NCBI GenBank assembly: GCA_964016885.1
Contig: OZ024744.1
Coordinates: 122,884,001-122,948,000, forward strand
Direction of reading: 5' to 3'
Source: Eledone cirrhosa
Taxonomy: Eukaryota
Length of the DNA stretch: 64,000 bases
The translations under genes and the position numbers were made by a program. The notes beneath the pieces were generated by a model, which had not been told where the DNA came from, searched no databases, and saw only the letters and a program-made list of their open reading frames with translations. Numbering within the stretch: the stretch's first letter is position 1; every line of letters begins with the position of its first letter. Positions 1 to 32,689 of the stretch are shown one piece after another.

Positions 1-1732
1 TGGTTCTGCTATTTTCTTGTCGTTGTTGCTGGGTGTGTGTGTTTTGTTGTTGTGTTTGCGATGTTGGTGCTTGTGGTGGTGGTGTTGAAGGTGTTGTTGG
101 CGGTGGGGTTGTCGCCGGTGGTGATGGTGGCGCTAGTGTGGGTGGTGATGGTGTTGGTGTTGTTGCTGCTGTGGGTCTCTTTGCAGTAGACTTTACCCTT
201 TTCTCATTTCTTTCCTCCCTTTTCAAAGGCGACGATGCGCTGCTTCTGCGTTTGTGCCTTCTTACGACCTTTTGCCATCTCTCTCCCACCTCACACTCCA
301 TGTCTGATTCTGTGAGGTCGGGGAGGGGTACCAACTCCACTCTTTCACTTGTTGTTGTTGGTGATGTTTGCACTGGAGTCTCTGTTGCAGCTGCATTTGG
401 TATTGCTGTTGTTGTTGTTAGTATTTCCACTGCTGCTGCTGTTTTTGATTTCCGTGGAGTGGGTATGGGTGCCACGGGCCTATCGTTCCTGGTTGCCGCT
501 TGTCCTGTTGCTGGTAGCCGTGGAGCCGGATTCGGAAGGAGGGGGGTTTTCTCCTTTCTCAGGGTCTTCTCGTTGCAGAAGGCCCTGAGGTGAGTCTTCG
601 ATCCACAGCGAAAGCATTTCGGGCGTTTGCCCTCAACACTTATGGGCAGTTGAGTGCCGTTATCGAAGTCTATCACATCCGGGATAGCTTCGATGCACTC
701 CTGGTTGGTTTGGATTAGCATCTCAATGGAGGAGCCGACCCAATCTTCTCTTACTTTTTTCTGTACTTGCAGTACAGTTGTTTTGTCCTCGATTCCGACG
801 AGGACAGACGCGGCCAGCCAAGAAGGGGTCATTCCGGGGGGGACGTGGGTCAGTTTGACCCTCACAATTTTTTGCCCACAGTAGGAGGGCACCAACACCA
901 TTTCCTCGCTCCTTAGGGTCACTACTGATTGGGCCTTTGCCTCCTGGGGTGTGGCAAAAAGTACGTCTACGGTGGCATATTTTTTGCCTCGGGTGATGTG
1001 CGTTTTCCGCTGCCACACAGACCCCAAGGCCTTTTGTATTTGGGCCTCTGTGGCTCTTTCCACCCTACGGGATTTTGTACTTACTGTACGGTACGTGACC
1101 GTACAGTGCTCTTGGGTTTCGAAAAAATTTTTCGCTGCCTTGCAGATTGCTCGGTGTCCGTTCTTTGTCACCATCTTCTTCGCTTCCTCTAATTCCTCAT
1201 TTGTTATGAGGATTGTTTCCAAGTTTTTCGCAATACCTGCAAATGAGATTGGTTTTTCTCTGCTGTTGTTGTTGTCGTCAGAGCTGCTGGTACTTTTGTT
1301 GTTGCTGCAGGTACTACGACTACTGCCTCCGCCGCTGTTGCTGTGGTTGTTGTTGGTGTTGCTGCTGCTAATGCTGTTGTTGTTTATGCTGCTGGTGATG
1401 CTGTTGCGGCTGCTACTGTTGTTTTCATTGTCACTGTTGCTGTTGTTATTACGGCTGCTACTGCTATTATTCCTGACGTCAGACGAATGAACTGGGTTTT
1501 CGTATTTCCCGCACACCTGTTTCGTCGCTGTCGTCGTCGTCGTGGAGAAACCTTGCACGCTTTGCACGAGACTTTTCTTTTCTTTCGTCGCTTGTGAAAG
1601 AGAAGGGAGGGAGAGAGACACATTTAAAGAAGGGAGGGAGAGAGACAATCTTCTCTCTGCTGTAGTGATGATTGAGGAAGAAGAAGACGGAATGAGTGGG
1701 AGTGACGTATGAAATTTCTTTTTCGTAGCCAT
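1..1732 (-). CDS. ORF1 (gag-like nucleic-acid-binding protein with CCHC zinc knuckle), apparently intact, C-terminus outside window
   Basis: AACATGG start at 1732 (MATKKKFHTS...), in frame with the Asn/Ser-rich tract and CFRCGSKTHLRAFC. G7 at 836-842 keeps the frame. Absent from the ORF track, consistent with no stop inside the window. Confidence 0.82.
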   Translation of the reverse strand, partial: MATKKKFHTSLPLIPSSSSSIITTAERRLSLSLPSLNVSLSLPSLSQATKEKKSLVQSVQGFSTTTTTATKQVCGKYENPVHSSDVRNNSSSSRNNNSNSDNENNSSSRNSITSSINNNSISSSNTNNNHSNSGGGSSRSTCSNNKSTSSSDDNNNSREKPISFAGIAKNLETILITNEELEEAKKMVTKNGHRAICKAAKNFFETQEHCTVTYRTVSTKSRRVERATEAQIQKALGSVWQRKTHITRGKKYATVDVLFATPQEAKAQSVVTLRSEEMVLVPSYCGQKIVRVKLTHVPPGMTPSWLAASVLVGIEDKTTVLQVQKKVREDWVGSSIEMLIQTNQECIEAIPDVIDFDNGTQLPISVEGKRPKCFRCGSKTHLRAFCNEKTLRKEKTPLLPNPAPRLPATGQAATRNDRPVAPIPTPRKSKTAAAVEILTTTTAIPNAAATETPVQTSPTTTSERVELVPLPDLTESDMECEVGERWQKVVRRHKRRSSASSPLKREERNEKRVKSTAKRPTAATTPTPSPPTLAPPSPPATTPPPTTPSTPPPQAPTSQTQQQNTHTQQQRQENSRT

Positions 1733-1948
1733 GTTGTTTTTTTGTTTAAAATGAAATTTTGGGTACAAAACCCCAATAACTGGTTATTTAACCCCGAAGG
1801 GCCAAATAACGGACAGAAAGACCCCTCTCACGAGGAGGAGGGTGTCTTTATCAACAATTTGGTTCAAGTTTTAAACAATTTACAATTGTTTTAACGGTTA
1901 AAAATTACTATACCTTACAGAGCCGAGCCTCCGTCAACCATGGCATTC
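1..1948 (-). mobile_element. Tx1-like non-LTR retrotransposon, copy 1 (5' part: 5' UTR + ORF1; continues left of window)
   Basis: Near-identical to ~6050-8007 of copy 2; 5' end (minus GAATGCCATGGTTGACGG) abuts (AAT)6. Confidence 0.93.
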
Positions 1949-1966
1949 AATAATAATAATAATAAT
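1949..1966. repeat. (AAT)6 spacer between Tx1 copies 1 and 2
   Basis: Read directly. Confidence 0.97.
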
Positions 1967-2228
1967 GATTTCTTTATTAACCACAAGGGTTTACATAAAG
2001 TAGACATTAAGGACAGTGCAGGACAATGCAGGACGGTACAAATGGGCATTTCTGCGTGTAAAAAAACAAAAACAGAGGATGTAACAAAAATAACAATGAA
2101 AATAACAATGAAAAATTCCCCAATAGGGGGGAGACTTCGGAGGGACATTTGTGGAGAAAGCCCAGTAAAAAGCCACAATGACCCTGACCACCAAGGCAAG
2201 TGCCCTCTCCCAGTTTTCCACCTTTAGT

Positions 2229-5200
2229 TTACAGATATATACTCAGAGTCGGCCCATTCACTCGGGCCATTCTTGCTTCTCTCACCCATCTTTCAACAAA
2301 ATGCTGGAAAGAGAGCACTTCCTTCTCTACTCTGATTTTCCTTTTCAAATGAAATTTGAAAAAGTCAATCAGAGCATCACCGAAGAGGTAAGTGCTCGTC
2401 TTCAGCCCTTTCAAACGTGTCCACCATACTATCTCTTTCGCCATGGCCACCAGACAGATAAAAACTGCCTGCCCTTCCCGGCTAAAGGAGGAGGGCGGGG
2501 CAATCCTCACGATAGACTCAGATGATAGCTGGATCCGTCCTAAACGCGACAGCAGGTGTTCGACATAAACCCACAAGTCAGCAATTTTCGGACACTGGAC
2601 GAGTGCGTGCAGGACGGTTTCGTCGCCCTGCGCGCATCTCGGACATGCCCGGCTGACGGCACCTCCATGCCTGTAGAGTTTATCCCGAACTGGCAAGGCT
2701 CCTCGGTAGCACTGCCAGGCCAGAGATTTCTGGAAGTTGTCCATAGGCCCCGGCCCGAAAGTTCTTCCGAAGAGATTGGCTAGTTGATTTTCGTCGACGC
2801 CTAGAGTTTCCCCAAGTACGTCGTCGCTCTTCCCCTCCACTAATCCTCTATAGAACGCCGAGGTGGAGTTTCCACCGATCACATTGCCCGATTGGTCGAG
2901 GGCTGTGAGCGCCTGAAGACATTCCAGTCTCCAGGCGCTCCCTCTCGGTCTTCGCTTGACCCAGGACTGCAGCTCCGTCAAGGAAACGAGCTGGGGAAAA
3001 ACGCGTCTAGCAAACGGCGACCACACCTGATCACCGTCGAGGAAGAGGTGGAGATGTCGTAGCCTGAGCGCGTGCCTGCGCATCATCAGCCACGGCATGC
3101 CCAGCCCTCCACGTAGCGGGTGTTGACAACAGATGGACCGCCTGACCATCGGAGCACGTCCCTTCCACAAAAAGCGAAAGAGCAAACGCTCCAGCGCAGT
3201 CAGGCGAGGCTTAGGACAAGGTACGACGGTTAGGCGGTAGCAGATGACAGACGCGATGTACGCGTTAGCCACCTCCGCTCGACCTTTCAGGGATAGCTTC
3301 CTCTCCGCCCATTTCTGGGTGAGAGAAGCCACCCTGCTCGTCACCTCGTCCCAGTTTTTGTCCGTCTGGAGGTCCGGACCGAACCAGACCCCTAGCAATT
3401 TAACCGGTCCGTCCGTCCAGCGCCCGACGACGCTGTTGGACGGCATGGACCTGCCTCTCCAGGTGCCGAGCTGCAGGCCCACTGACTTTTCCTGGTTGAT
3501 CATTGCTCCTGTCACCGCTTCGTATTCTCTTAGTGTAGTGCCGATCGCCTCGATGTGTTTGGCGTTCGACACCACTACGGTGACATCGTCCGCATATGCT
3601 GACACGGATCTTCCGCATCCTAGTTCGCGCGGGACTCCCCTCAACGTCTCCAGTTTGTGCAGTAATGGCTCGAGAGTCAATACGTACAAGAGGGACGAGA
3701 GGGGACATCCTTGGCGGACCGAGCGCATGATGTTGAACGGTTCCGACAGGTGACCGTTCACTCTCACTACAGAGCAGATGTCGCTGTGCATGGCAGCGAT
3801 CCAGCCTCTGAAGACGGGCCCAAAGCCAGCCGCCCTCAGGACTGCCGCTAGGTAACGATGGTCGACCCTATCGAAAGCTTTCGACTGATCTAAATTGATC
3901 AAGGACCCACCCGTGCCAGGTTCCCTAGCTACCCTCTCTACGATGTATCGCATGAGGTGGAGGTTGTCGTGGATGGATCTGTCGGGAATGGCGCATGTCT
4001 GCGCCTCTCCCACCAGACCACCAACGACAAGCGCCAACCTCTTTGCTAGCACCTTGGCCAAAATCTTAAACTCTGTGTTTAGCAGAGTTATGGGCCGGAA
4101 ATTGTCTATGTTATCCCCCTTGTTCGGATCCTTTCTCAGCAGTGCCACCGCTCCTCGGCTCACAGAACTGGGAATTCTCCCGTTCTGTTGCCAGTTGCAG
4201 TAGACGTCCGCCAAGAGGCCTCCGAACAACTCTGGCATCTGTACGTAAAGTTCATAGGGCAGACCATCCAAACCAGGCGATTTACCCCTTGTGCAGCCAG
4301 TCATTGCCTCCCTTACTTCAGCGGCTGTTATCGGCTTTTCGCAACACTTCGCCTCAGTGGCCGAGAGCCGCGGCAGTCCGTCGAGGTAGACACTAAAGTC
4401 CATCCCTCTACCCGGCCCCCCGCTGCCCCCGAACAGCTGAGCGAAGTGTCGCTGAAAAGCTTCACACATTTGCCCGGGATCGAGTAGCATGCGCCCGTCG
4501 TGGTCCACCAAAGACCGGATCGTGGCTTTGTTGCCACGACGCGCCTCCGCCACTCGGGCCCATTGAACGGCTTTCGTCCCCTCGTGTCTGAGAGCACGCA
4601 CCCTAGCTCTGACAACGCAGACTTCGTGCTTTGCATTGAAGAATTGGTCAAGGGCCAATTTCGCCGCAAGCACGTCGGTCGCAATGCCTTTGCTAAGCGC
4701 CTCGTCTAATTTTCTAACTAGTTCTCCCTCTGCTCTATTTTTCTCTATTGCTAAAGCCTTACTAAACCTAATCGATTCTATTCTAATCGCTCTTTTCAGA
4801 GCAAACCACCACTTGTTGTTGACGATGGCCCCCGTCAACGCCCTCTTAACTAGTTCGCTAATCCGGTCTCTGTAGGCCTTGCGCGCTGGTAAGGACGCGT
4901 TTAGCTTCCAGTAGCCGGGTCCTCGTCTATGAAGCCTATCTAAGTCAAGCACACAGGTCACGAATTTGTGGTCCGTGTAGCTGACTATCTTGAATTGTGG
5001 ACAGCCTATGCTAGACCTATCTATTTCCCTACAAAATACTCTATCTAGATATGATCTGGATGACCCTATGCGATTTGTCCAAGTCCACATTGGCACATTC
5101 GGGAAATCCAATCGGTACCTGTCAGACAGTTCAAAACGCCTGAGCAGGTTGGTGAGGCTATTGCACCCTCCACCCCTATCCGCTAATCCCACACAGTCCC

Positions 5201-5648
5201 AGCGTGCATCTAAGATCCCGTTCCAGTCGCCCACTAACACTAAAGAGCGGGACGTTCCAAGAAAGGTCTCCAGACGCCGGAAGAAATCAGGCCGCCCTGC
5301 TCCTGTCGGGGCATAGACGGCCACTAGCCTGAAAGCTTGCCCGTCTCCGCTGGTCACGTCCAGCACCACCAGCTTACCCTCTGGGTCCAGGAAGATGGCC
5401 CGTATGGCGAGATCCAAACCTCTCCGAAAAAGCATAGCAACTCCTCCACCCGATCCAGGACGGCTGGGAGATGCGTACACATCGTAGCCGCCGAAGATCG
5501 GTGCGAAGGCCCGTGCTTCGGAGATTCTGGTCTCGCTGATGGCCACTACATCTATGTTTAGTGACCTGAGGTCGTTGAGCAGGTGACCCTGCTTCCATGA
5601 CGACCCCAAGCCACGCGCATTTATGCTGCCTATTCTGAGTGAGGTCAT
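2229..5648 (-). CDS. ORF2 polyprotein: APE endonuclease + reverse transcriptase + C-terminal zinc finger (1139 aa, intact)
   Basis: APE motifs SINARGL, ISET, VYAP, VGDWN, YLDRVF, YTDH; GPGYWKLN; RT motifs KSPGLDGLP, FRPITLLN, DQSKAFDRVDH, RQGCPLS, YADD; C-terminal CPRC...ETVLHALVQC. Confidence 0.97.
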   Translation of the reverse strand: MTSLRIGSINARGLGSSWKQGHLLNDLRSLNIDVVAISETRISEARAFAPIFGGYDVYASPSRPGSGGGVAMLFRRGLDLAIRAIFLDPEGKLVVLDVTSGDGQAFRLVAVYAPTGAGRPDFFRRLETFLGTSRSLVLVGDWNGILDARWDCVGLADRGGGCNSLTNLLRRFELSDRYRLDFPNVPMWTWTNRIGSSRSYLDRVFCREIDRSSIGCPQFKIVSYTDHKFVTCVLDLDRLHRRGPGYWKLNASLPARKAYRDRISELVKRALTGAIVNNKWWFALKRAIRIESIRFSKALAIEKNRAEGELVRKLDEALSKGIATDVLAAKLALDQFFNAKHEVCVVRARVRALRHEGTKAVQWARVAEARRGNKATIRSLVDHDGRMLLDPGQMCEAFQRHFAQLFGGSGGPGRGMDFSVYLDGLPRLSATEAKCCEKPITAAEVREAMTGCTRGKSPGLDGLPYELYVQMPELFGGLLADVYCNWQQNGRIPSSVSRGAVALLRKDPNKGDNIDNFRPITLLNTEFKILAKVLAKRLALVVGGLVGEAQTCAIPDRSIHDNLHLMRYIVERVAREPGTGGSLINLDQSKAFDRVDHRYLAAVLRAAGFGPVFRGWIAAMHSDICSVVRVNGHLSEPFNIMRSVRQGCPLSSLLYVLTLEPLLHKLETLRGVPRELGCGRSVSAYADDVTVVVSNAKHIEAIGTTLREYEAVTGAMINQEKSVGLQLGTWRGRSMPSNSVVGRWTDGPVKLLGVWFGPDLQTDKNWDEVTSRVASLTQKWAERKLSLKGRAEVANAYIASVICYRLTVVPCPKPRLTALERLLFRFLWKGRAPMVRRSICCQHPLRGGLGMPWLMMRRHALRLRHLHLFLDGDQVWSPFARRVFPQLVSLTELQSWVKRRPRGSAWRLECLQALTALDQSGNVIGGNSTSAFYRGLVEGKSDDVLGETLGVDENQLANLFGRTFGPGPMDNFQKSLAWQCYRGALPVRDKLYRHGGAVSRACPRCAQGDETVLHALVQCPKIADLWVYVEHLLSRLGRIQLSSESIVRIAPPSSFSREGQAVFICLVAMAKEIVWWTRLKGLKTSTYLFGDALIDFFKFHLKRKIRVEKEVLSFQHFVERWVREARMARVNGPTLSIYL

Positions 5649-5683
5649 GTTTAAAATAGAGTGGAAAAGATGGGAAAGACCAC

Positions 5684-7793
5684 TTACCGTACTTTTGGTA
5701 GAGGAGGGATGGTTTTTACATCCCTTTTCACTTGATCGTCTGGTGAAGGGACCGTTGAATCGTCCCTTCGGCTGGTCGTCGGCTCTTCTAAGAGAATGTC
5801 TGAATATACTCTTCGATTGATAGTTCCTCCTAGGTCCCTGAAATCACCAACTGCGTTGGGGAATTTCGTTTTAATGTTTGTGTATTGTTTCTGTGCTATT
5901 TTTAGCAGTCTTATGTTAGTTGGCGTTTTGATTGGTGCTGGTATTATGTAGTCGTGTTGTGAAATGTCTGTGTGTTCAATTATGTAAGTCATTAGTTTCT
6001 TGTTGTGTGTATTTATTGCCGTGCATTTGTTTTTCTGGGGGTGGGGTGTGGTTCTGCTATTTTCTTGTCGTTGCTGGGTGTGTGTGTTTTGTTGTTGTGT
6101 TTGCGATGTTGGTGCTTGTGGTGGTGGTGTTGAAGGTGTTGTTGGCGGTGGGGTTGTCGCCGGTGGTGATGGTGGTGCTAGTGTGGGCGGTGATGGTGTT
6201 GGTGGTGTTGCTGCTGTGGGTCTCTTTGCAGTAGACTTTACCCTTTTCTCATTTCTTTCCTCCCTTTTCAAAGGCGACGATGCGCTGCTTCTGCGTTTGT
6301 GCCTACTTACGACCTTTTGCCATCCCTCTCCCATTTCACACTCCATGTCTGATTCTGTGAGGTCGGGGAGGGGTACCAGCTCCACTCTTTCACTTGTTGT
6401 TGTTGGTGATGTTTGCACTGGAGTCTCTGTTGCAGCTGCATTTGGTATTGCTGTTGTTGTTGTTAATATTTCCACTGCTGCTGCTGTTTTTGATTTCCTT
6501 GGCGTGGGTATGGGTGCCACGGACCTATCGTTCCTGGTTGCCGCTTGTCCTGTTGCTGGTAGCCGTGGAGCCGGTTTTGGAAGGAGGGGGGTTTTCTCCT
6601 TTCTCAGGGTCTTCTCGTTGCAGAAGGCCCTGAGGTGAGTCTTCGATCCACAGCGAAAGCATTTCGGGCGTTTGCTCTCAACACTTATGGGCAGTTTAGT
6701 GCCGTTATCGAAGTCTATCACATCCGGGATAGCTTCGATGCACTCCTGGTTGGTTTGGATTAGCATCTCAATGGAGGTGCCGACCCAATCTTCTCTTACT
6801 TTTTTCTGTACTTGCAGTACAGTTGTTTTGTCCTCGATTCCGACGAGGACATACGCGGCCAGCCAAGAAGGGGCCATTCCGGGGGGGGGGGGGGGGGACG
6901 TGGGTCAGTTTGACCCTCACAATTTTTTGCCCGCAGTAGGAGGGCACCAACACCATTTCCTCGCTCCTTAGGGTCACTACTGATTGGGTCTTTGCCTCCT
7001 GGGGTGTGGCAAAAAGTACGTCTACGGTGACATATTTTTTGCCTCGGGTGATGTGCGTTTTCCGCTGCCACACAGACCCCAAGGCTTTTTGTATCTGAGC
7101 CTCTGTGGCTCTTTCCACCCTACGGGATTTTGTACTTACTGTACGGTACGTGACCGTACAGTGCTGTTGGGTTTCGAAAAATTTTTCCGCTGCCTTGCAG
7201 ATTGCTCGGTGTCCATTCTTTGTCACCATCTTCTTCGCTTCCTCTAATTCCTCATTTGTTATGAGGATTGTTTCCAAGTTTTTCGCAATACCTGCAAATG
7301 AGATTGGTTTTTCTTTGCTGCTGTTGTTGTTGTTGTCGTCAGAGCTGCTGGTACTTTTGTTGTTGCTGCAGGTACTACGACTACTGCCTCCGCCGCTGTT
7401 GCTGTGGTTGTTGTTGGTGTTGCTGCTGCTAATGCTGTTGTTGTTTATGCTGCTGGTGTTGCTGTTGCGGCTGCTACTGTTGTTTTCATTGTCACTGTTG
7501 CTGTTGTTATTACGGCTGCTACTGCTATTATTCCTGACGTCAGACGAATGAACTGGGTTTTCGTATTTCCCGCACACCTGTTTCATCGCTGTCGTCGTCG
7601 TCGTGGAGAAACCTTGTACGCTTTGCACGAGACTTTTCTTTTCTTTCGTCGCTTACGAAAGAGAAGGGAGGGAGAGAGACACATTTAAAGAAGGGAGGGA
7701 GAGAGACAATCTTCTCTCTGCTGTAGTGATGATTGAGGAAGAAGAAGACGGAATGAGTGGGAGTGACGTATGAAATTTCTTTTTCGTAGCCAT
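5684..7793 (-). pseudogene. ORF1 of copy 2, disrupted
   Basis: ATG at 7793 matches copy 1; TAA at 7653-7655 (CAA in copy 1); G17 at 6881-6897 (G7 in copy 1) shifts the frame; knuckle CFRCGSKTHLRAFC retained. Confidence 0.88.
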
Positions 7794-8007
7794 GTTGTTT
7801 TTTGTTTAAAATAAATATTGGGTACAAAACCCCAATAAGCAGTTATTTAACCCCGAAGGGCCAAATAACGGGCAGAAAGATCCCTCTCACGAGGAGGAGG
7901 GTGTTTTTGTCTACAAGTTGGTCTAAGTTTTAAACAATTTACAATTGTTAAAGCGTTCAAAATTTACAGTACCTTACAGAGCCGAGCCTCCGTCAACCAT
8001 AGCATTC

Positions 8008-8040
<33 letters not shown>
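8008..8040. repeat. (AAT)11 spacer between Tx1 copies 2 and 3
   Basis: Read directly. Confidence 0.97.
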
Positions 8041-8041
<1 letters not shown>

Positions 8042-8284
8042 TTTTCTTTATTAACCACAAGGGTTTACATAAAGTAGACATTAAGGACAGTACAGGACAA
8101 TACAGGACGGTACAAATGGGCATTTCTGCATGTAAAAAAAACAGAGGATGTAATAAAATAACAAAGAAAAATTCCCCAATAGGGGGGAGACTTCCGAGGG
8201 ACATTTGTGGAGAAAGCCCATTAAAAGACCACAGTGACCCTGACAACCAGGGCAAGTGCCCTCTCCCAGTTTTCCACCTTTAAT

Positions 8285-11200
8285 TTACAGACACATACTC
8301 GGTCCATACTTGCTTATCTCACCCATCTTTCAACAAAATGCTGGGAAGAGAGCACTTCCCTCTCTACCTTGATTTTCCTTTTCAAATGAAATTTGAAAAA
8401 GTTAATCAGGGCATCACCGAAGAGGTAAGTGCTCGTCTTCAGCCCTTTCAAACGTGTCCACCATACTATCTCTTTCGCCATGGCCACCAGACAGATAAAA
8501 ACTGCCTGCCCTTCCCGGTTAAAGGAAGAGGGCGGGGCAATCCTCACGTTGGACTCAGCTGATAGCTGGATCCGTCCTACACGTGATAGCAGGTGTTCGA
8601 CATAAATCCACAAGTCAGCAATGCTCGGACACTGGACGAGTGCGTGCAGGACGGTTTCGTCGCCCTGCGCGCATCTCGGACATGCCCGGCTGACGGCACC
8701 TCCATCCCTGTAGAGTTTATCCCGAACTGGCAAAGCTCCCTGGTAGCACTGCCAGGCCAGGGATTTCTGGAAGTTGTCCATAGGCCCTGGCCCGAGAGTC
8801 CGTCCGAAGAGATTGGCTAGTTGATTTTCGTCGACGCCTAGAGTTTCTCCAAGTACGTCGTCGCTCTTCCCCTCCACTAATCCTCTATAGAACGCCGAGG
8901 TGGAGTTTCCACCGATCACATTGCCCGATTGTTCGAGGGCTGTGAGCGCCTGAAGACATTGCAGTCTCCAAGCGCTCCCTCTCGGTCTTTGCTTGACCCA
9001 GGACTGCAGCTCCGTCAAGGAGACGAGCTGGGGAAAGACGTGTCTAGCAAACGGCGACCACACCTGATCACCGTCGAGGAAGAGGTGGAGATGTCGTAGC
9101 CTGAGCGCATGTCTGCGCATCATCAGCCACGGCATGCCCATCCCTCCACGTAGCGGGTGTTGACAGCAGATGGACCGCCTGACCATCGGAGCGCGTCCCT
9201 TCCACAAAAAGCGAAAGAGCAAACGCTCCAGCGCAGTCAGGCGGGGCTTAGGACAAGGTACGACGGTCAGGTGGTAGTAGATGACGAACGCGATGTACGC
9301 GTTAGCCACCTCCGCTCGACCTTTCAGGGATAGCTTCCTCTCCGCCCATTTCTGGGTGAGAGAAGCCACCCTGCTCGTCACCTCGTCCCATTTTTTGTCC
9401 GTCTGGAGGTCCGGACCGAACCAGACCCCTAGCAATTTAACCGGTCCGTCCGTCCAGCGCCCGACGACGCTGTTGGATGGCATGGACCTGCCTCTCCAGG
9501 TGCCGAGCTGCAGGCTCACTGACTTTTCCTGGTTGATCATTGCTCCTGTCACCGCTTCGTAATCTCTTAGTGTAGTGCCGATCGCCTCGATATGTTTGGC
9601 GTTCGACACCACTACGGTGACATCGTCCGCATATGCTGACACGGATCTTCCGCATCCTAGTTCGCGCGGGACCCCCCTCAACGTCTCCAGTTTGTGCAGT
9701 AATAGCTCGAGAGTCAATATGTACAAGAGGGACGAGAAGGAACATCCTTGGCGGACCGAGCGCATGATGTTGAACGGTTCCGAAAGGTGACCGTTCACTC
9801 TCACCACAGAGCAGATGTCGCTGTGCATGGCAGCGATCCAGCCTCTGAAGACGGGCCCAAAGCCAGCCGCCCTCAGGACTGCCGCTAGGTAACGATGGTC
9901 GACCTTATGGAAATCTTTCGACTGATCTAAATTGATCAAGGACCCACCTGTGCCAGGTTCCCTAGCTACCCTCTCTACGATGTATCGCATGAGGTGGAGG
10001 TTGCTGTGGATGGATCTGTCTGGAATAGCGCACGTCTGTGCCTCTCCCACCAGACCACCAACGACAAGCGCCAACCTATTTGCTAGCACCTTGGCCAAAA
10101 TCTTGAACTCTGTTTTTAGCAGAGTTATGGGCCTGAAATTATCTATGTTATCCCCCTTGTTCGGATCCTTTCTCAGCAGTGCCACCGCTCCTCGGCTCAC
10201 AGAACTGGGAATTCTCCCGTTCTGTTGCCAGTTGCAGTAGACGTTCGCCAAGAGGCCTCCGAACAAGTCTGGCATCTGTACGTAAAGTTCATAGGGCAGA
10301 CCATCCAAACCAGGCGATTTACCCCTTGTGCAGCCAGTCATTGCCTCCCGTACTTCAGCGGCTGTTATCGGCTTTTCGCAACACTCCGCCTCAGTGGCCG
10401 AGAGCCGTGGCAGTCCGTCGAGGTAGACACTAAAGTCCATCCCTCGATCCGGCCCGCCGCTGCCCCCGAACAGCTGTGCGAAGTGTCGTTGAAAAGCTTC
10501 ACACATTTTCCCGGGATCGAGTAGCATCCGCCCGTCGTGGTCCACCAAAGACCGGATCGTGACTTTGTTGCCACGACGCGCCTCCGCCACTCGGGCCCAT
10601 TGAACGGCTTTCGTCCCCTCGTGTCTGAGAGCACGCACCCTAGTTCTGCCAACGCAGCCTTCGTGCTTTGCATTGAAGAATTGGTCAAGGGCCAATTTCG
10701 CCGCAAGTACGTCGGTTGCGATGCCTTTGCTAAGCGCCTCGTCTAATTTTCTAACTAATTATCCCTCTGCTCTATTTTTCTCTATTGCTAAAGCCTTACT
10801 AAACATAACGGACTCTATTCTAATTGCTCTTTTCAGAGCAAATCACCACTTGTTGTTGACGATGGCCCCCGTCAACGCCCTCTTAACTAGTTCGCTAATC
10901 CGGTCTCTGTAGGCCTTGCGCGCTGGTAAAGACGCGTTTAGCTTCCATTAGCCGGGTCCTCGTCTATGAAGCCTATCTAAGTCAAGCACACAGATCACGA
11001 ATTTGTGATCCGTGTAGCTGACTATCTTGAATTGTGGACAGCCTATGCTAGACCTATCTATTTCCCTACAAAATACTCTATCTAGATATGATCTGGATGA
11101 CCCTATGCGATTTGACCAAGTCCACATTGGGACATTCAGGAAATCCAATCGGTACCTGTCAGACATTTCAAAACGCCTGAGCAGGTTGGTGAGGCTCTTG

Positions 11201-11685
11201 CACCCTCCACCCCTATCCGCTAATCCCACACAGTCCCAGCGTGCATCTAAGATCCCGTTCCAGTCGCCCACTAACACTAAAGAGCGGGACGTTCCAAGAA
11301 AGGTCTCCAGACGCCGGAAGAAATCAGGCCGCCCTGCTCCTGTCGGGGCATAGACGGCCACTAGCCTGAAAGCTTGCCCGTCTCTGCTGGTCACGTCCAG
11401 CACCACCAGCTTACCCTCTGGGTCCAGGAAGATGGCCCGTATGGCGAGATCCAAACCTCTCCGAAAAAGCACAGCAACTCCTCCCCCCGATCCAGGACGG
11501 CTGGGAGATGCGTACACATCGTAGCCGCCGAAGATCGGTGCGAAGGCCCGTGCTTCGGAAATTCTGGTCTCGCTGATGGCCACTACATCTATGTTTAGTG
11601 ACCTGAGGTCGTTGAGCAGGTGACCCTGCTTCCATGACGACCCCAAGCCACGCGCATTTATGCTGCCTATTCTGAGTGAGGTCAT
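8285..11685 (-). pseudogene. ORF2 (APE-RT) of copy 3 with nonsense mutations
   Basis: Stops at 10948-10950, ~10843-10845, 10759-10761 and 8314-8316, plus a small 3' deletion; RT motifs altered (DQSKDFHKVDH, QGCSFS). Confidence 0.92.
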
Positions 11686-11720
11686 GTTTAAAATAGAGTG
11701 GAAAAGATGGGAAAGACCAC

Positions 11721-13657
11721 TTACCTTACTTCTCGTACAGGAAGGACGGTTACTCCATCCTTTTCACTGCTTGTGGCCTCCTCAGGAAAGATGTCCTTAT
11801 AAATCCTCCTGGAGAGTGCTTGTCGGAAGTCTCCGATGTCTTTGGGGAATTTTTGTTTTAGTGTCATGTACGTTTTCTGTGTGATGCGAGTGATTTGTAT
11901 GTGTGGAGGTGGTGTGAACTTTTGGGTTGTTGTGTAGTCTTTTTCTGTGATGCTGGTGTTGTGTTGGATGTAGTGTAATAATTGGTTGTTGTTCAAATTT
12001 AATGCTGTGTAGTGTGTATCGTTTTGGTTGTTTTGTTTTGTTTGTGTTTGTTTCTGTTTCGCTTTTTGGTGACTTTTGTGGTGTAGGTGATGGTAGTGTT
12101 GGGGTTAATGATGGTGATGGTGTTGGTGTTTGGAGTGATGGGGTTGGTGATGCTGGTGTGGATGGTGGCATATCTGTCCTAACTTTTTTGTTTGATAATC
12201 TAATTGTTTCTCTCTGTATTTTGTTTTTGGAGGGGGAAGGAAGAGAATTTTTTCCTTTTTTAGTTTCTTTTTTTCTTTTTTCCTGATACCGTTTCCCACT
12301 CCTCGTCGTCACAATCTGTCTCCAGTTGTGATAGGCCGGGGAGTGGAAAATCCTCCACAGACGCTAGTTTTGGTTGTGGCGTGGTGGATGGTGTAGGCGC
12401 TGGTGCTAGTTCTGGCGCGTTGGGTGGTGGTGGTGTTGGTTTTGCTACTGTTGCTGGGGCTGTTGCTGTTACAGTTGCTTCTGTTGTTGCTGCTGCCATC
12501 TCTGCTGTTGGTGGTGTTGATGGTTGAGTCACTGGGGTGGGTAGGAGAGGTGGCCTCAACCTTTTAGCCTGAGGGAAGAAAGCCCTTAGGTGGGTTCCCT
12601 CACCACAAACGACACACCTAGGCCTTCTGCCCTCGACAATTACGGTGAGGTGGCTGCCGTCAGTGAGGTCTATTACCTCTGGGATCTCCTCAATGCTCTT
12701 TTGGTCCGCTTGGATCAGGAGCTCCATCCCAGATTCGGACCAGTTCTCCTGCTTTTCTTTCGCTATTTCGATTATCTTGGTGTTGGCTTCGATGCCGGCG
12801 AGGACTGCAGCTATTAGCCAGGGAATTTCGATGGCCGGTGGAACGTGGGTGACCCTGATCTTTACGAGTCTCTGACCACAATAGCTTGGGACGAGTGTGA
12901 AGTCGTCACTTCTTAATGGGGCCATGTAGTGTTCTCTGGCCTCCTGTGGTGTTTCAAAGAACACGTCCACGGTTCCATACTTCTGCCCACGTCTGATGTG
13001 GGTTTTTTTTTGCCCACACATGTCCCAAAGCTTTTTGGATTTGGGACTCGGATGCCCGTTCCACTCGGCGCGAATTTATATTAATTGTTCGATAAGACAC
13101 GGTGCGTAGGCGCCGATGCTCCATTTTATTAGGTGTGTGTGTGTGTGTGGGGGGGGGGGGGGGGCTGACCCTGTACCCATCTTTCTTTACCATTTTTTTG
13201 GCTTCTTCTAATTCCTCCTGAGTTACCTGAAATGATTCGCACTGTTTTGCTACTCTGGCAAAACTCAGGGTGGTTTTCTTAATGTCATTGTTGCTGTTGT
13301 TGTTATCGTTATTTCTGTTATTATTAATTTTAGTTTCAGTTGTGGTGGTGGTGGCGTCAGTGGTGTTCGGTGTGGAACAGTTCATTTTGGTTGAATTAAT
13401 TTCGATATCACGAGTTAATTTATTTTTTCTTTTGTTTCTGTTGTCGCGGTGGTCGTGGGGGTGGTGGTTGTCGCGGTGGTGGCGGCTTTAACACCTGAAG
13501 TCATTGGTAATGGCGGGAAATGAATGTCTGCCTGAGACAAATTTAAAATATTGCTACTGCTTATATTTTTAGTGTTGGCAAACGTAGTAATATTTACAAT
13601 GGTGGTGTCGGTGTGAGGTGTTATTTTGTGAGAAAGGAGTGACTCTGAGTCAGCCAT
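11721..13657 (-). pseudogene. ORF1 of copy 3 (divergent type), multiply frameshifted
   Basis: Track pieces 13415-13657, 12954-13385, 12260-13021, 11797-12312 and 11721-11996 change frame at each join; knuckle CVVCGEGTHLRAFF has lost its last Cys; homologous to copy 2 ORF1 (LVPSYCGQ, THVPP). Confidence 0.85.
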
Positions 13658-13870
13658 GATGTTTCAAAGAAAAACTTTTGTTTGATAATTATAAAAGTTT
13701 AAATTTAGGACTCAAGGCCCCAATCTTTTTGGGTATCCTTTTCAGATAACAATGTATGTGCACTTATATACAATTAACAATAAAATTTTCCATGAATGGC
13801 AATTTTGAACAACTGAAAATAACAAACCTTTGCGGAGCTCACGATGATACGATTTACTACGTAGGTCGCC

Positions 13871-13888
13871 AATAATAATAATAATAAT
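13871..13888. repeat. (AAT)6: SINE tail and anchor of the Tx1 array
   Basis: Read directly. Confidence 0.95.
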
Positions 13889-14060
13889 TGTTTCTACGTT
13901 AGGCACAAGGCCAGCAATTATCAGTGTATTACTGGTACTTTATTTTAAGGATGAAAGGCAAAGTTAACCTCGGCGGGATTTGAACTCAGAATGGCAAGGG
14001 CCGTAACTCTATGCGTCAAAGCATGGCGTCCGACCCTCTACCGATACTGCCAATCCACCG
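13889..14060 (-). mobile_element. tRNA-derived SINE with (ATT)n tail
   Basis: Minus strand: A-box-like TGGCAGTATCGG, B-box GAGTTCAAATCCC, body ending GCCTTGTGCCTAACGTAGAAACA then (ATT)n. Another AAT run at 14061-14075. Resembles abundant octopus SINEs (from memory). Confidence 0.8.
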
Positions 14061-14191
14061 ATAATAATAATAATAAATGTGAAGACTAAAATCCAAAGAG
14101 GGCTCGATAAGGATAAATATATATCAAATATATAAGAACCCTAGATTCTTTGCTTAAACTTTAATCTGTTATTTTAATATATATATATATA

Positions 14192-16075: not shown

Positions 16076-16076
16076 A

Positions 16077-26400: not shown

Positions 26401-27603
26401 GGCAATGAAAGGGTTAATGACATACACAGTATCTTTCATTAGATATATGGTAATGAAAGGGTTAATGACATAGCCAGTGTCTTTCATTAGAAATATGGTA
26501 ATGAAATGGTTAATGACATAGACTGTCTTTCATTAGAAATATAGTAATGAAATGGTTAATGTCATAGACAGTGTCTTTCATTAGTAATATGGTAATGAAT
26601 GGGTTAATGACATAGTCAGTGTCTTTCATTGGAAATATGTTAATGAATGGGTTATTGACATATGTAGTGTCTTTCATTAGAATATGGTAATGAAAGCGTT
26701 AATGTCATAGAGAGTGTCTTTCATTAGAAATATGGTAATGAAAGGGTTAATGACATAGACAGTGTTTTTCATTAGAAATATGGTAATGAAAGGGTTAATG
26801 ACATAGAGAGTGTCTTTCATTAGAAATATGATAATAAAAGGGTGAATGACATAGACAGTGTCTTTCATTAGAAATATGGTAATGAAAGGGTTAATGACAC
26901 ATTAGAAATATGATAATGAAGGTTTTAATGAAGTAGACATTGTCCTTCATCAGAAATATGATAATTAAATGTTTAATGACATAGACAGTGTCTTTCATTA
27001 GAAACTTGGTAATGAAAGGGTTAATGTCATAGACAGTGTCTTTCATTAGAAATATGGTGATGAAAGGGTTAATGGCATAGACTGTGTCTTTCATTAGAAA
27101 TATGGTAATGAAAGGGTTAATGACATAGACAGTGTCTTTCTTTAGAAACATGGTAATGAAAGGGTTAATGATACAAACAGTGTCTTTCATTAGAAATATG
27201 GTGATGAAAGGGTAATGGCATAGACAGTGTCTCTCATTAGATATATGGTAATGAAAGGGTTAATGACATAGTCAGTGTCTTTCATTAGATATATGGTAAT
27301 GAAAGGATTAATGTCATAGACAGTGTCTTTCATTAGAAATATGGTAATGGAAGGGTTAATGACATAGACAGTGTCTTTCATTTGAAATATGCTAATGAAA
27401 GGGTTAATGACATAGTGTCTTTCAATACAAATATAGAAATGAAAGGATTAATGACATAGACAGTGTCTTTCATTAGAAATATGGTAATGAAAGGTTTAAT
27501 GACATAGCCAGTGTCTTTCATTAGAAATATAGTCATGAAAGGGTTAATGACAGAGATAGTGTCTTTCATTGAAAAATATGGTACTGAAAGGGTTAAATAT
27601 ATA
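23452..27603. repeat. 48-bp satellite DNA, left block
   Basis: Consensus GACAGTGTCTTTCATTAGAAATATGGTAATGAAAGGGTTAATGACATA in tandem. Confidence 0.98.
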
Positions 27604-27867
27604 TATTTCCTTTATTTGCCACTAGGGCATCAAAAGTGGGACAAGTACAAAGGGGGGAGTTTACACAAAAAGGCGTCCTCAATAAGGAGAAGGCAATAAC
27701 AAAATATAAAAATAAAATAAGATATAACAAAAAATAAAATTTTTAACAAAATCCTCAATAGAGAGGAGGCGCCTTGGGGGGTCGCACACACCCCCGAAAA
27801 AAGTGTGCAACCCTTCTCCTCAGGAGCACAGAGAAGGGGTGCTCCCTTGGTCTTTCATCTTCCTCAC

Positions 27868-30661
27868 CTATAGTCTGATGTAGAGTGAAGGCCCATTCAC
27901 ACGGGCCATTCTCGCCACTTTCACCCATCTTTCATAGAAACGGCTGGGGTGCAGCACCTCTCTCTCCATCCTGATCCTTCTTCCGAAATGATATCGGAAG
28001 AAACGGACCAGTTGTTGGCCAGAGAGAAAGGTGCCCGACCTCAGTCCTTTCAGACGCGTCCACCATACAACCTCTTTCGCCATGGCTATTACGCACAGAA
28101 ACACCGCCTCTGCTTCATCTTTGAAGGGGGGAGGCGGCTTGATCATTACAATAGACTCGGTGGTCAACCGGATCGGTCCCACCCTTGACAGCAGTTGTTC
28201 GACATAGCCCCACAGATCGGCTACGCCCGAGCAGTGTACTAATGCGTGTGCAACGGTTTCCTCGTCGCACACGCATCTGGGACAGATCTTTTTGGCGGGG
28301 TCCCTACCCGGGCGCCCGTGTCTGTAGAGCCTTTCTCGAACGGGTAAAGCCCCTCGGTAGCACTGCCAGGCCAGGGACTTCTGGAAGTTGTCCATAGGTC
28401 CCGGGCTGAATGTCCTACCGAACAGGCTGGCCAGTTCGTCCTCCTCCATGTCTAGGGCTTCTCCGAGGGCGTCGTCGCACCTGCTGCGTACCAGCCCTCT
28501 ATAGAATGTTGCGGTGGAGTCTCCACTGATAACCGGATCCGCCTGCCAGAGGGCGGTGAGCGCCTGGGCACACTCAGTGTGCCAGGCGCCCAGTTTTCTC
28601 GGTCTTTGCTTGACCCAGGATTGCAGCTCGGTGAGTGAGACGAGTCTGGGAAAGGTTCGTCTCACAAACGAGGCCCACACCGGTTGTCCGGTGAGGAATA
28701 CGTAGAGGTGCCGTAGCCTTAATGCGTGTTTACGCATCATTAGCCACGGCATCCCGAGAGGTAGCCGTTCACCTTGACCCTAGAGCAGATGCGGCCGCTG
28801 TGCATAGCAGTGATCCAGCCCCTGAAAACGGGTCCGAAGCCTGCCGCCGCTAGCACCGCATCCAGGTAACCATGGTCGACCCTATCGAACGCCTTAGATT
28901 GATCCAAGTTGATCAGAGCCCCACCAAAGCCGGGTTCGTTCCCAACCCTCCCTATGATGTATCGCATGAGGTGGAGGTTGTCATGGATGGACCTGGACGG
29001 GATAGCGCATGTCTGCGCATCTCCCACCAGGTTGCCCACGACAAGCGCCAACCTCTTTGCTAGCACCTTGGCCAAAATCTGTAACTCTGTATTTAGCAGT
29101 GTTATGGGCCTGAAGTTACTTATTTCGTCCCCCTTGTTCTCGTCCTTCCTCACTAGCGTGACTACGCCCTTGGTCACAGTACAGGGAATTCTCCCGTTCT
29201 GTTGCCAGTTGCAGTAGACCGCCTCGAGGAGATCGGGGAACAAGTCCGGCATAGCTAGATATAATTCGTAAGGAAGACCATCGAGACCCGGGGATTTGCG
29301 TTTGCCGCATTGGCTCAGCACGTCCTCTATCTCAGCGGCTGAAATCGGCTCCTCGCAGGACTTCGCCTCCCTGTCCGAGAGGCGCGGCAGGCCGTCGAGG
29401 TATGGACCGAAGTCCACGTTCCCAACCGGCTCCCCGCCCCTCCCGAACAGTCGGGCAAAGTGCCTTTGAAAGGCCTCACACATCTGCTTAGGCTCAAGAA
29501 TCGCCCGTCCATCCAGGTCTCGCAAAGACCGGATGGTGGATTTAGTTCCACTGTTGGCCTCTGTCACGCGGGCCCAGCTAACAGCTTTGGTCCCCTCGTT
29601 CCCTAGAGCACGTATTTTACTTCGGACAATGCAGCCTTCGTGCTTCGCGTCGAAAAACTGGCTCAAAGCCGTTCTCGACGCTAGCACTCTGGCCACGTCG
29701 CCGCTTCTAATTGCCTCTTCTACTCTATCTATTAGCTCCCTTTCCTTCCTATTCCTATCCGCAGCTAGAACCTTACTAAATTCTATCGAGACTACTCTAA
29801 TCTCTCTCTTTAGAGATACCCACCACCTGCTGTTGACGATCGCTCCAGTCAACCGTTCCTTAACTAACGTACTAATCCGATTCCTGTAGGCTCTACTTGC
29901 CGGCAAGGACAAGTTGAGCTTCCAGTAACCGGGGCCCTGTCTATGAGTTCTGTCAAGGTTGACCATGCAGGTCACTAATTTGTGGTCTGAATAGCCAACA
30001 ATGCGCATTTTTGGACAACTTAAAAAGTCCTTATCCTTAATTCTAACTAAGAACCTATCTAGGTACGACCTAGATGATCCGCTACGATTTGCCCAATCCA
30101 GGTTGGCGCAGTCGGAAAATCTAGTCGATATCTATCGGCCAGGTCAAATCGACCGATTAACCCTTTGAGGCTATTACACCCCTCTCTATCGGGGCAGGCC
30201 CCTACGTAGTCCCAGCGTGCATCTAGGATACCATTCCAGTCCCCCACTAATAGCAAGGAGCGGGACGTCCCTAGAAAAGTCTCCAGACGATGGAAGAAGT
30301 CCGGCCGCATTGACCCGAAAGGGCCGTAGGCGGCTACCAACCTAAACGCTCCGCCTTTACCACTGCCAAGGTCCAGAACCACTAGTCGACCCTCCGGGTC
30401 CAAATGTACCATCTGTGTTGCGAGACCCAGATGTTTTTGCAGCAGAACGACAACTCCACCCCCACCTCCGGGCTGACAGAGAGATGCGTGCATCTCAAAG
30501 TCATCAAAGGTGGGGGCCAGCTGTCGCACGTTGCTGATCCGGGCCTCGCAAATAACCATCACATCTATACGTTGTGTCCTGAGGTCATTTAGAAGCATTG
30601 CTTGCTTCCAAGTTGAGCCCAGGCCACGCGCATTTAAACAGCCTACTCTTAGCATAGCCAT
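27868..30661 (-). pseudogene. ORF2 of copy 4: frameshift in APE and ~640-bp deletion of the RT core
   Basis: Starts MAMLRVGCLNARGLG; frameshift near 30095; VNGYLS joined directly to GMPWLMM at 28755/28756, so QGCPLS and YADD are missing relative to copy 2. Confidence 0.9.
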
Positions 30662-30685
30662 GTTGGTGGTGAAGAGAAAAGGCAC

Positions 30686-32473
30686 TTACCTCTCTGCGTC
30701 CCGGGTATCGGGCTGCACAATTTCCATTAGGGTGGGGGGTGGGTTGTTGGGTGGGGTGGTGGTTTGTGGAAGTGTGGGGGCATCAGTGTGTTGTGTGGTT
30801 GGGGAGCTTGGAGTTGTGAGGGTGTTTGGGGAGGGGGTGGGATAGTTTTTTAGGAGGACGCGGTTAATGGGCCCGACGCAGGGGGGACCCACGTCCTCTT
30901 TAAAATTGTTTTTTAAAGTTTTATAGGTGTCCTGTGGGGCCTTAATCATTTTGAGGTGGGGGAAATCCCCTGCCTGGGTGAAGTTAGGCCCTTGTGTTTT
31001 TATTAGATTGTTGTTGTACACAATGTTTAACAGTTTTTTGTTTCTTGTATTTATGTATGTGTATGCATGTTTTTGTTTTTGTGTGGTGTTTTTTGTTTGC
31101 TGTTGTGAGCTCTTTTGTGTTGGTGTCAGTGTTATGTTTTGGGGAGGGTTTTTTTTCATTTGTGTGTCTGAGGTGTGTTTTCTTTTTTTTCTTTTGATTG
31201 TGTGGAAGTGCTCCTCCTCGTCTGACGACGAACTAGGATCATCTTCCGCGTTGGAGGGGAGGGGTATATTTTCGGGTTGTGTTTGCGGTACGGGTGTTTT
31301 GGAAATTGTTTTTGTTTTTTGAGTGGAGGGGATGGGTTGGACATTGTTTTGTTTTGGTTTGAGCTGTGGTGGTTGTTTTTGTAGTGGTAGTTGTGGTGAT
31401 TGTGTTGGTTGTGCAGTTGTTGGTGGTGTAGGCAGGATTGGGGTTTTCTTATTAAGTTGGGGACAGACAGCCCTCAGGTGACCTCTGGTTCCGCAGAGGT
31501 AACACGAGGGCCGTCTACCCTCAACGGTAATGTTGATGAAGGTTAGATCATCCAGTATGACGCGTTCAGGGATCTGGGCGATCCTTTCGGGCCTCATTTG
31601 AACTACAAGTTCGAGGCTCGTTCCACTGAACGCGTCACCCGATGCCTTTCCCATGGACACCAGCATGTCATCCTCCAGGTCCAGAAAACCTGTCAAAACC
31701 CACCATATGTCCATAATCGGCAGGATGGTGTGGATTTTTATTTTTTGTGTTCTTCTACCCATGTACGTAGGGTAGAAGGTGTATGCGGTGGATGTGATTG
31801 GTTTGATGGACAGTTTCACTGCTGTGTCCCTGTCCTTCATGAGAATGGATAGACTCCCGTAGAGTCTATCCTTCTGAATGAAGGTGATGTCCTTCATGAC
31901 GTCTTTTAAAACCAGCTCTATCTCGCTCTGTGATGGTTGAGCTGGTTTTTTACTTTTGTTCGAGATTGTCCTAAACATGACCGTGTTTAGGAGTCTCTGG
32001 CTTTTTAGTTCCGGGGGGGAATGGATTGTGAATGAACCATTTTCCCCGTACACTATATATTTTTTCGCATCCGCCAGTAGCTTCTTCGCTTTTGTTATAT
32101 CTACTGGCAGATAGTCGAGGGTTTTCCTTGTCGTCTCGGCGAAGGAGAAATTTTGTTTGTTTGTGTTGTTGTTATCGTTGGTGGTGTTGTTGTTATCATT
32201 GTTGTTGTTGTCACCGTTATTGGTCTTGTTGTTGTTATTGTTATTGTTATTGGTGTTGCTTTCGTCCGTGGCATTGTTGTTGTTGTTGCTGTTGCTGCTG
32301 GTTCTTGGGGTTGTTGCCATGGCAACGTCAAGTTGTCGGTTAACAGGTGGAGAGAATTCTTCCTCTGGCTGACCTATCTTCTTGACCTCTGCTACTGTGA
32401 CAGTGGCAGGGGGAAGCTGTAAGTTCATCTTCCCCTTTCCTCCTTCGAATTTTGGTGAAGAAGCTTCGGCCAT
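30686..32473 (-). CDS. ORF1 of copy 4 (595 aa, intact), CCHC zinc knuckle
   Basis: Asn-rich N-terminal region, central domain homologous to the other ORF1s (PTYMG, VEGRRP), CYLCGTRGHLRAVC, Pro/Thr/Gln-rich C-terminal half. Confidence 0.9.
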   Translation of the reverse strand: MAEASSPKFEGGKGKMNLQLPPATVTVAEVKKIGQPEEEFSPPVNRQLDVAMATTPRTSSNSNNNNNATDESNTNNNNNNNNKTNNGDNNNNDNNNTTNDNNNTNKQNFSFAETTRKTLDYLPVDITKAKKLLADAKKYIVYGENGSFTIHSPPELKSQRLLNTVMFRTISNKSKKPAQPSQSEIELVLKDVMKDITFIQKDRLYGSLSILMKDRDTAVKLSIKPITSTAYTFYPTYMGRRTQKIKIHTILPIMDIWWVLTGFLDLEDDMLVSMGKASGDAFSGTSLELVVQMRPERIAQIPERVILDDLTFINITVEGRRPSCYLCGTRGHLRAVCPQLNKKTPILPTPPTTAQPTQSPQLPLQKQPPQLKPKQNNVQPIPSTQKTKTISKTPVPQTQPENIPLPSNAEDDPSSSSDEEEHFHTIKRKKRKHTSDTQMKKNPPQNITLTPTQKSSQQQTKNTTQKQKHAYTYINTRNKKLLNIVYNNNLIKTQGPNFTQAGDFPHLKMIKAPQDTYKTLKNNFKEDVGPPCVGPINRVLLKNYPTPSPNTLTTPSSPTTQHTDAPTLPQTTTPPNNPPPTLMEIVQPDTRDAER

Positions 32474-32689
32474 TTAAAAAAATATTGACTTTTCAACAAG
32501 AAAAAACTTTTTTTTTAACTATTTCGCCTAAAGGCGTAGAATATTTTGAGAGACTGACCAGATCAAAGTTTGACCTGGCAGTCCCTCTACAAAATGGTAC
32601 AAAAATTAAAGTTATCAGACAAGAATTTCTATAGAAATTTAAACAGAACTTACTCAGACTCAGCAAGTTATACGCGTGTGTCCATCCCA

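Follow-up and report, generated by a model that had tools for sequence, protein, structure and literature searches.

Conserved splice-donor motifs at the reading-frame ends of Tx1/L1-type LINEs and a possible ORF2-containing intron in Eledone cirrhosa

This analysis concerns a 64,000-nucleotide (nt) stretch of the Eledone cirrhosa genome (contig OZ024744.1, positions 122,884,001 to 122,948,000), referred to below at its full length as the window. Its minus strand carries three copies of a long interspersed nuclear element (LINE) arranged head to tail (copies 1–3) and a fourth copy inside a 48-bp satellite. The first open reading frame (ORF1) of these elements ends at a strong 5′ splice donor, here called D1, which recurs in a distant family of the same kind. 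In the explanation that we tentatively favor, at slightly less than an even chance, the donor of this Tx1/L1-type lineage would be spliced to an acceptor in the 3′ untranslated region (UTR), which would remove ORF2 and yield an ORF1-only mRNA, and the unspliced RNA would be the template. The strong donors at the ORF1 ends are real; the intron reading is plausible, but of the two intron ends it is the donor that argues for it. The features on which the argument depends are the following (a slash marks the splice boundary).

5682..5690, minus strand: D1 of copy 2, ACG/GTAAGT, overlapping the ORF1 stop, G at 5687; ranks first of 313 GT sites
11719..11727, minus strand: D1 of copy 3, AAG/GTAAGT, G at 11724, at the edge of the block common to copy 2; ranks first of 292 GT sites
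30684..30692, minus strand: D1 of copy 4, GAG/GTAAGT, G at 30689; ranks first of 239 GT sites
1..1948, minus strand: the 5′ part of copy 1, which belongs to the family of copy 2; the ORF1 stop of copy 1 falls beyond the window edge
1949..8007, minus strand: copy 2, full-length two-ORF LINE (Tx1/L1 group) with an (ATT)n end
5684..7793, minus strand: copy 2 ORF1, with a CCHC knuckle, an Arg-TAA end and a frameshift at a C run near 6900
2229..5648, minus strand: copy 2 ORF2, intact, with endonuclease, reverse transcriptase and zf-RVT
8008..13870, minus strand: copy 3, its ORF1 unlike that of copy 2 and broken in several places, its ORF2 and 3′ UTR of the same family as copy 2
27600..32682, minus strand: copy 4, divergent family, in the 48-bp satellite, ORF2 broken
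30686-32473, minus strand: copy 4 ORF1, intact

The original prediction, made from the letters of the window, described the visible ORF1s as ending in Arg-TAA and thereby forming a donor, and the motifs were found where it had placed them: at 5687, 11724 and 30689, the G of the donor completes an Arg codon as its third base, and the TAA stop of ORF1 comes next. It had also proposed the scoring of these sites. With an approximate donor matrix, D1 is the best GT site in copies 2, 3 and 4, and it ranks first in four of the five elements scored, i.e., these three copies and one representative of each of two outside families (L003 and L076, introduced below). The chance of finding an equally good donor in a given 10-nt window, estimated from 200 shuffles of each element, is ~0.001 in copy 2, and in copies 3 and 4 it falls to ~0.0001. 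Folding around the donor revealed no structure common to the elements.

Such motifs could in principle reflect chance combined with shared ancestry, as half of the motif is given by the TAA stop and the copies are related. The stop provides three letters of the motif; yet only one of the 61 TAA triplets in copy 2 and one of the 66 in copy 4 lie within GGTAAGT, and these are the ORF1 stops themselves. Perfect donors are also present on the antisense strand of copy 2, which speaks for chance, and so does the relatedness of the copies. The prediction had counted three divergent ORF1 types; the donors are present in all three, but not all of these cases are independent. Between copies 2 and 3, identity is 95% over the stretch that starts just 5′ of the donor and takes in ORF2 and the 3′ UTR (94.7% amino acid identity in ORF2, 0.93 at fourfold sites), with 86 of 86 aligned nucleotides identical from the donor onward, so that the window represents two lineages, not three. 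Copy 4 belongs to a divergent family (68% amino acid identity in ORF2 over 446 residues), and a fraction of 0.55 of its fourfold sites is still shared with copy 2.

A search with an endonuclease alignment widened the sample by 43 loci, distributed over the bacterial genome bins G001 and G002. Both are species-representative bins and hold LINE arrays of animal type that run to hundreds of kb (G001, CAXXMW01 contigs 2-18; G002, contig C16), and since tandem arrays of intact LINEs are found in them, the contigs are considered mis-binned animal DNA, likely host contamination. The ORF2 of the main G001 family, represented by L003, is 43% identical to that of copy 2. Fourfold sites are shared between the window and this family at 0.27, against 0.26 expected at random, and thus the neutral sequence memory between the two lineages is gone. 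ORF1 of the main G001 family ends with TAA and is followed by G/GTAAGT, so that AAG/GTAAGT stands one base after the stop. Of 64 non-redundant ORF1 ends, 63 carry D1, and the one without it is from a degraded G002 copy; because the copies are tandem and related, we treat them as a single lineage. Another degraded G002 copy, with a TAG stop and a different spacer, still carries GAG/GTAAGT. The Arg-TAA overlap and the 19-residue tail of the original prediction are present in the window, but they are details of the lineage, as the stop of the distant family precedes the donor.

The mode of this conservation is informative. The base after position +6 of D1 varies between G, C and T, the motif of the window contains the stop, whereas in G001 the stop precedes it by 1 nt, and the distance from the D1 region to the ORF2 ATG is 13, 28 or 39 nt. 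This variability implies that D1 is kept as nucleotides, not as codons. In G001, the donor is independent of the stop and the silent sites are saturated, the positional chance per lineage is ~1e-4 to 1e-3, and the pattern appears again at the ORF2 stops of three lineages. On these grounds, chance with shared ancestry is largely refuted and retains very little probability; a chance origin of the ORF1-end donor across both lineages is unlikely.

The recurrence at the ORF2 stops concerns a second donor (D2), which was absent from the original prediction and is new here.

27862..27870, minus strand: D2 of copy 4, TAG/GTGAGG, directly at the ORF2 stop (+0); ranks second of 239; p=0.07 within the 3′ UTR

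In the main G001 family, GTRAGT is found at +14 in 54 of 54 ends, as GTAAGT in 27 and as GTGAGT in the other 27, both compatible with U1 (rank 2 of 389 in L003, p=0.03). L076, which represents a second G001 family, has CAG/GTAAGT at +40, ranking first of 393, with p=0.008 in within-UTR shuffles. All D1 and D2 donors lie between 4 nt before and 40 nt after a stop codon. A signal for translation re-initiation was considered and rejected, as the motif recurs after the ORF2 stop, where no frame follows.

The favored explanation would operate as follows. The spliceosome would join D1 to a 3′ UTR acceptor, excising all of ORF2 and leaving an ORF1-only mRNA. D2 would offer this acceptor a second choice of 5′ site, and the resulting mRNA would contain both frames; the unspliced RNA would likely be the template of transposition. 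Such an arrangement may provide ORF1 protein in excess over ORF2 protein, comparable to the Gag protein of the EVD retrotransposon discussed below. In copies 2 and 3, splicing would shift the ORF1 stop into the last exon, and in G001 the stop would lie just before the junction. Nonsense-mediated decay follows a 50-55 nt rule, and at the distances between donors and stops given above, the junction would not set it off for the respective frame. The downstream side of the predicted intron comprises the following features.

2052..5687, minus strand: predicted intron of 3,636 nt with the whole of ORF2 inside
2052..2085, minus strand: candidate acceptor of copy 2, pyrimidine tract and CAG preceded by 81 AG-free bases; within the shuffled background
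8126..8150, minus strand: candidate acceptor of copy 3, pyrimidine tract and CAG ending at 8126; p ~0.04-0.05 against shuffles
27678..27700, minus strand: non-canonical GAG of copy 4 (27678-27680) after a 74-nt AG-free U-rich tract, at a place matching the copy 2 acceptor
1991..2051, minus strand: short frame of copy 2 that would extend ORF1 after splicing, 19 residues and a stop
1973..1990, minus strand: conserved 3′-terminal hairpin of copy 2 (ACC-CTTGT-GGT), with AATAAA

With regard to U2-type introns, the 5′ splice-site consensus is matched, and a pyrimidine tract with YAG lies downstream in the 3′ UTR in four of the five elements, above shuffles in one of the five. This site is the top-ranked acceptor in copies 2 and 3. 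Candidate branch points were noted by eye only. The acceptors at 2052 and 8126, called strong in the original prediction, lie at the stated positions, but their strength was not confirmed: against dinucleotide shuffles of the U-rich 3′ UTR, the best acceptor gives p=0.35 in copy 2 and 0.04-0.05 in copy 3. For copy 4, only weaker acceptors had been noted (TAG at 27622-27624 and GAG at 27678-27680), and its best acceptor has p=0.88; the TAG is an improbable acceptor, as it lies in the loop of the conserved terminal hairpin. The best downstream acceptors of L003 (p=0.47) and L076 (p=0.65-0.68) likewise do not exceed shuffles. Inside ORF2, 250-290 nt ahead of its stop, a Pro-Pro-x-Phe coding motif is followed by a further acceptor-like site, which is outside the top ten of copy 3. 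The tail expected after splicing reads as had been predicted in copies 2 and 3, i.e., NAHLYRP(A/V)LSCTVLNVYFM and a stop shortly ahead of AATAAA; protein searches for an ORF1 carrying this tail returned zero homologues.

Several observations weigh against ORF2 being an intron. First, the acceptor side is poor: apart from copy 3, the 3′ UTR acceptor is no better than shuffles (four of the five elements), AG-free stretches are unremarkable in four of the five, and copy 4 offers GAG alone. Second, the donors are not universal. A good ORF2-stop donor is missing from copies 2 and 3, and in the four degraded G002 junctions, D1 is perfect in one, weaker in one and lost in two. The original prediction had proposed to follow GTAAGT across wider families, and the wider sample supports a conserved donor at the ORF1 end, although of the two outside families only the main G001 family carries it; L076 (49% identical to that family) lacks the ORF1-stop donor. 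The stop-start overlap that L076 has instead, TAATG, counts in favor of the splicing model. A quick version of the tree separates the window elements from L003 and L076, which group together; for this topology, a single donor loss in L076 would be the simplest account and two gains are possible. Third, the RNA of copies 2 and 3 would retain the terminal hairpin after splicing, so its retrotransposition might be expected, and an ORF1-only genomic copy was found at none of the 68 ORF1 ends in G001, all of which adjoin an endonuclease match. Finally, a conserved donor-like motif need not serve splicing: a conserved donor of human L1 is maintained because it lies inside a RUNX3 site (PMC5860796).

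Further families were sought in several collections. The elements have other relatives at the ~40% level (P0002, P0003, P0005, P0012, P0016). Scans of viral contigs gave no match, a metagenome scan gave two loci only, both of an unrelated degraded element, and among the genomes of the class of G001 (401 sampled, 400 scored), matches were limited to G001. Rfam returned sub-threshold matches only, none of them within the elements.

The genomic copies indicate that the inserted template was unspliced, as 5′-truncated copies retain the 3′ UTR donor and ORF1 ends abut ORF2. In the window, ORF1 joined to the 3′ UTR, as in HAL1 or SpIRE elements, was found at none of the three ORF1 ends. The 3.1-kb units in contig C9 of G001 were considered as spliced copies and rejected, since they are 5′-truncated and retain the region behind the second donor. 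Three contigs from runs of an unspecified kind (X4 record 9, X5 record 17, X6 record 30) read through a donor unspliced. In contigs from four of the six runs, compared with 5600-13900, none of the 15 joints listed falls at a donor-acceptor pair; with 1212 more joints outside the listing, this is no evidence either way. In L003 (~8380) and in L076 (~16525), a TGTA/AATAAA signal also occurs internally, 240-290 nt ahead of the terminal signal of each outside family. A spliced mRNA ending at this internal signal would lack the terminal hairpin and would thus escape copying.

The contrast between the two intron ends leads to another possibility, in which U1 small nuclear ribonucleoprotein binds the motifs of each non-coding segment (5′ UTR, spacer and beginning of the 3′ UTR) without productive splicing and aids transcription, promotes nuclear retention of the full-length RNA or suppresses nearby polyadenylation signals. 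This is favored by donors far above chance next to acceptors that are not, and by genomic copies that are all unspliced. Moreover, copies 2, 3 and 4 each have AATAAA or ATTAAA ahead of the ORF1 stop, at a distance of 190-335 nt, a geometry that can be likened to that of the major donor of the human immunodeficiency virus. Donor-like sites are also found in 5′ UTRs: several G001 types have a donor 50-110 nt from the start, with AAA/GTAAGT reaching p=0.01-0.02 in four of the four types tested. In two other G001 types, L076 and three window UTRs, 5′ UTR donors were not significant against shuffles, and copy 4 has a weak site of this kind.

32648..32656, minus strand: weak 5′ UTR donor-like site of copy 4, TGA/GTAAGT; not above shuffles

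In the form given by the original prediction, with a U1 site shielding ORF2 from premature polyadenylation, this alternative is weakened, as ORF2 contains AATAAA or ATTAAA in none of the five elements and there is nothing downstream to shield. The signal upstream of ORF1 stops does not explain the donor throughout either: 23 of 61 G001 ORF1s have no polyadenylation signal in the last 500 nt and keep the donor. In addition, a perfect donor before a pyrimidine tract and CAG would usually be spliced at some rate. We consider U1 binding without splicing, the main rival of the favored explanation, rather unlikely.

The poor acceptors of the 3′ UTR may also mean that the donors are spliced elsewhere, to the 5′ UTR of the next tandem unit, to a host exon or, by back-splicing, to the element's own 5′ UTR. 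ORF1, or ORF1 with ORF2, would then be a cassette exon of a read-through RNA. The elements are indeed arranged head to tail both in the window and in G001, the best acceptor of L003 lies in its 5′ UTR (score 14.6, p=0.03), and copy 4 has donors and no good 3′ UTR acceptor. On the other side, the best 5′ UTR acceptor of copy 2 scores just 2.6, and no acceptor exceeds the background in nine of the ten 5′ UTRs tested, which leaves splicing to outside acceptors improbable. A separate observation was made in the 5′ UTRs of L003 (~1910-2000), L010 and L030, where a donor-like TCG/GTAAGA is buried in a perfect long-range stem of 13-14 bp and a strong acceptor lies ~190 nt past it.

The position of the motif in copies 2 and 3 raises the question of recombination. 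Their ORF1 cores are just 53% identical, and the change from divergent ORF1 to near-identical sequence sits at the donor (5687 and 11724), which suggests an exchange of ORF1 with a breakpoint at or near the donor. The motif could accordingly be read as a look-alike of a donor, i.e., a sequence recognized by a DNA- or RNA-binding protein, or a hotspot at which ORF1s are exchanged by recombination. Besides the identity boundary at the motif, the RUNX3 precedent of human L1 fits this idea, and copy 3 and L003 have 12 nt in common (AGTAAGGTAAGT), four beyond what pairing with U1 needs. Nevertheless, the variants GTAAGT, GTGAGT and GTGAGG, preceded by AG, CG or TG, obey the splice consensus, conservation of the spacer ends after +6, and the ORF1 swaps of G001 occur upstream of the motif, not at it. 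A look-alike is likewise improbable. In G001, one ORF2 family (L003-L045, L087) is combined with many divergent types of 5′ UTR and ORF1 N-terminus in long head-to-tail arrays, and ORF1 cores are down to ~47-55% identical.

The elements fit the Tx1/L1 group by their predicted proteins. Pfam identifies Exo_endo_phos, RVT_1 and zf-RVT in ORF2, whose best relative of solved structure is L1 ORF2p (E ~1e-52), and the ORF1 translations contain a CCHC knuckle, C-x2-C-x4-H-x4-C. A Pfam search of the window ORF1s returned no family, and that of L076 has a weak zf-CCHC. Atlas matches of ORF1 fall in zf-CCHC and ZCCHC3-type clusters (0.90-0.92), pointing to a resemblance to ZCCHC3-type RNA-binding proteins. 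The nearest named protein is a Ciona pol-like protein (27%), no named Tx1 reference is among the matches, and the tree carries no labelled clades. Before the final AATAAA, all lineages have a terminal hairpin with the loop CTNGT and compensating changes in the stem (1973-1990, 8047-8064 and 27611-27628 on the minus strand of the window, L003 ~8595-8621, L076 ~16790-16823). This hairpin is likely the 3′ signal recognized by the reverse transcriptase.

The (ATT)n sequence occurs between copies 1–3 and before copy 3, and tails of (ATT)n may be the target of these copies, whereas the end of copy 4, within the satellite, is (AT)n. New G001 units begin a few bases past the AATAAA of the previous unit. 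Other features of the window are the following.

13880-14060: repeat resembling a short interspersed nuclear element, with (ATT)n on its flanks, immediately upstream of copy 3
14191-14588 and 16076-16473: two direct repeats of 400 bp, 96% identical and 1.9 kb apart, like the long terminal repeats (LTRs) of a small non-autonomous element
~16550-19400, minus strand: degraded element of another LINE type encoding a reverse transcriptase (RVT_1 match)
23473-27596 and 32690-64000: 48-bp satellite, >740 copies, in higher-order blocks recurring at ~2 kb and ~12 kb

The general layout of the window elements is that of Tx1-clade and L1-group LINEs, i.e., two ORFs with APE endonuclease, reverse transcriptase and zf-RVT in ORF2 and CCHC in ORF1. 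LINEs are usually described as intronless bicistronic RNAs, in which the ratio of ORF1p to ORF2p is set by weak translation of ORF2. The Tx1 elements Kibi and Koshi have microsatellite-like flanks, similar to those around the window elements (PMC4494074), and in Octopus vulgaris, L1-Tx1 families are listed as recently active (PMC13282606). Conserved donors at ORF ends are apparently undescribed in this kind of LINE: no description of conserved donors at ORF stops or of an ORF2-containing intron was found among the titles and abstract openings returned by a literature search outside of which were Repbase reports, most subscription journals and supplements, and in two of three papers on octopus or cephalopod repeats (PMC13282606, PMC8967140 and PMC9115989), a text search found no mention of splicing.

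Splicing of LINE RNA as such has precedents. Human L1 RNA has functional splice sites, as seen in SpIREs; there, the donor is in the 5′ UTR, splicing is reported to be harmful and spliced genomic copies exist (PMC5860796), whereas the donors described here stand at ORF ends, and the search for spliced copies returned none. Introns have been named in transcripts of L1, Tad, kangaroo-1, Penelope and Athena (PMC1636488). Penelope and TART keep introns in genomic copies and splice their transcripts (PMC2377424, PMC1636488); Penelope has a short 5′ intron and TART antisense introns, and removal of the reverse transcriptase frame from the sense RNA is not among the features reported in the available parts of these papers. 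HAL1 elements are ORF1-only derivatives of L1 (PMC5753468), the same layout as that of the predicted spliced RNA; however, HAL1s are genomic elements, and ORF1 ends without ORF2 number 0/68 in G001 and 0/3 in the window.

The closest functional likeness is found outside LINEs. In Drosophila, copia produces gag RNA by splicing comparable to that of Arabidopsis EVD. EVD, a Ty1/copia element, forms by alternative splicing an mRNA for the structural protein only, beside the full-length RNA (PMC12252137). The likeness is functional only: EVD and copia have LTRs and a single fused frame, and their isoform has been demonstrated, whereas the window elements are bicistronic LINEs with two separate frames, an APE endonuclease, no LTR and a putative ORF2 intron predicted from sequence. 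That a lineage retains donors at the ends of both ORFs although divergence is saturating implies that contact with U1 or the spliceosome is under selection. More generally, it is possible, and we put it forward tentatively, that the spliceosome serves as an expression switch of such LINEs, with ORF2 as an optional intron, alternative donors, copying of the unspliced RNA alone, and TAATG coupling in lineages without the donor. If these RNAs are spliced, this would be a new means of adjusting the proportions of the two proteins and of keeping mRNA and template apart; it would be the LINE counterpart of copia and EVD Gag splicing, and a direct route to half-L1, ORF1-only elements.

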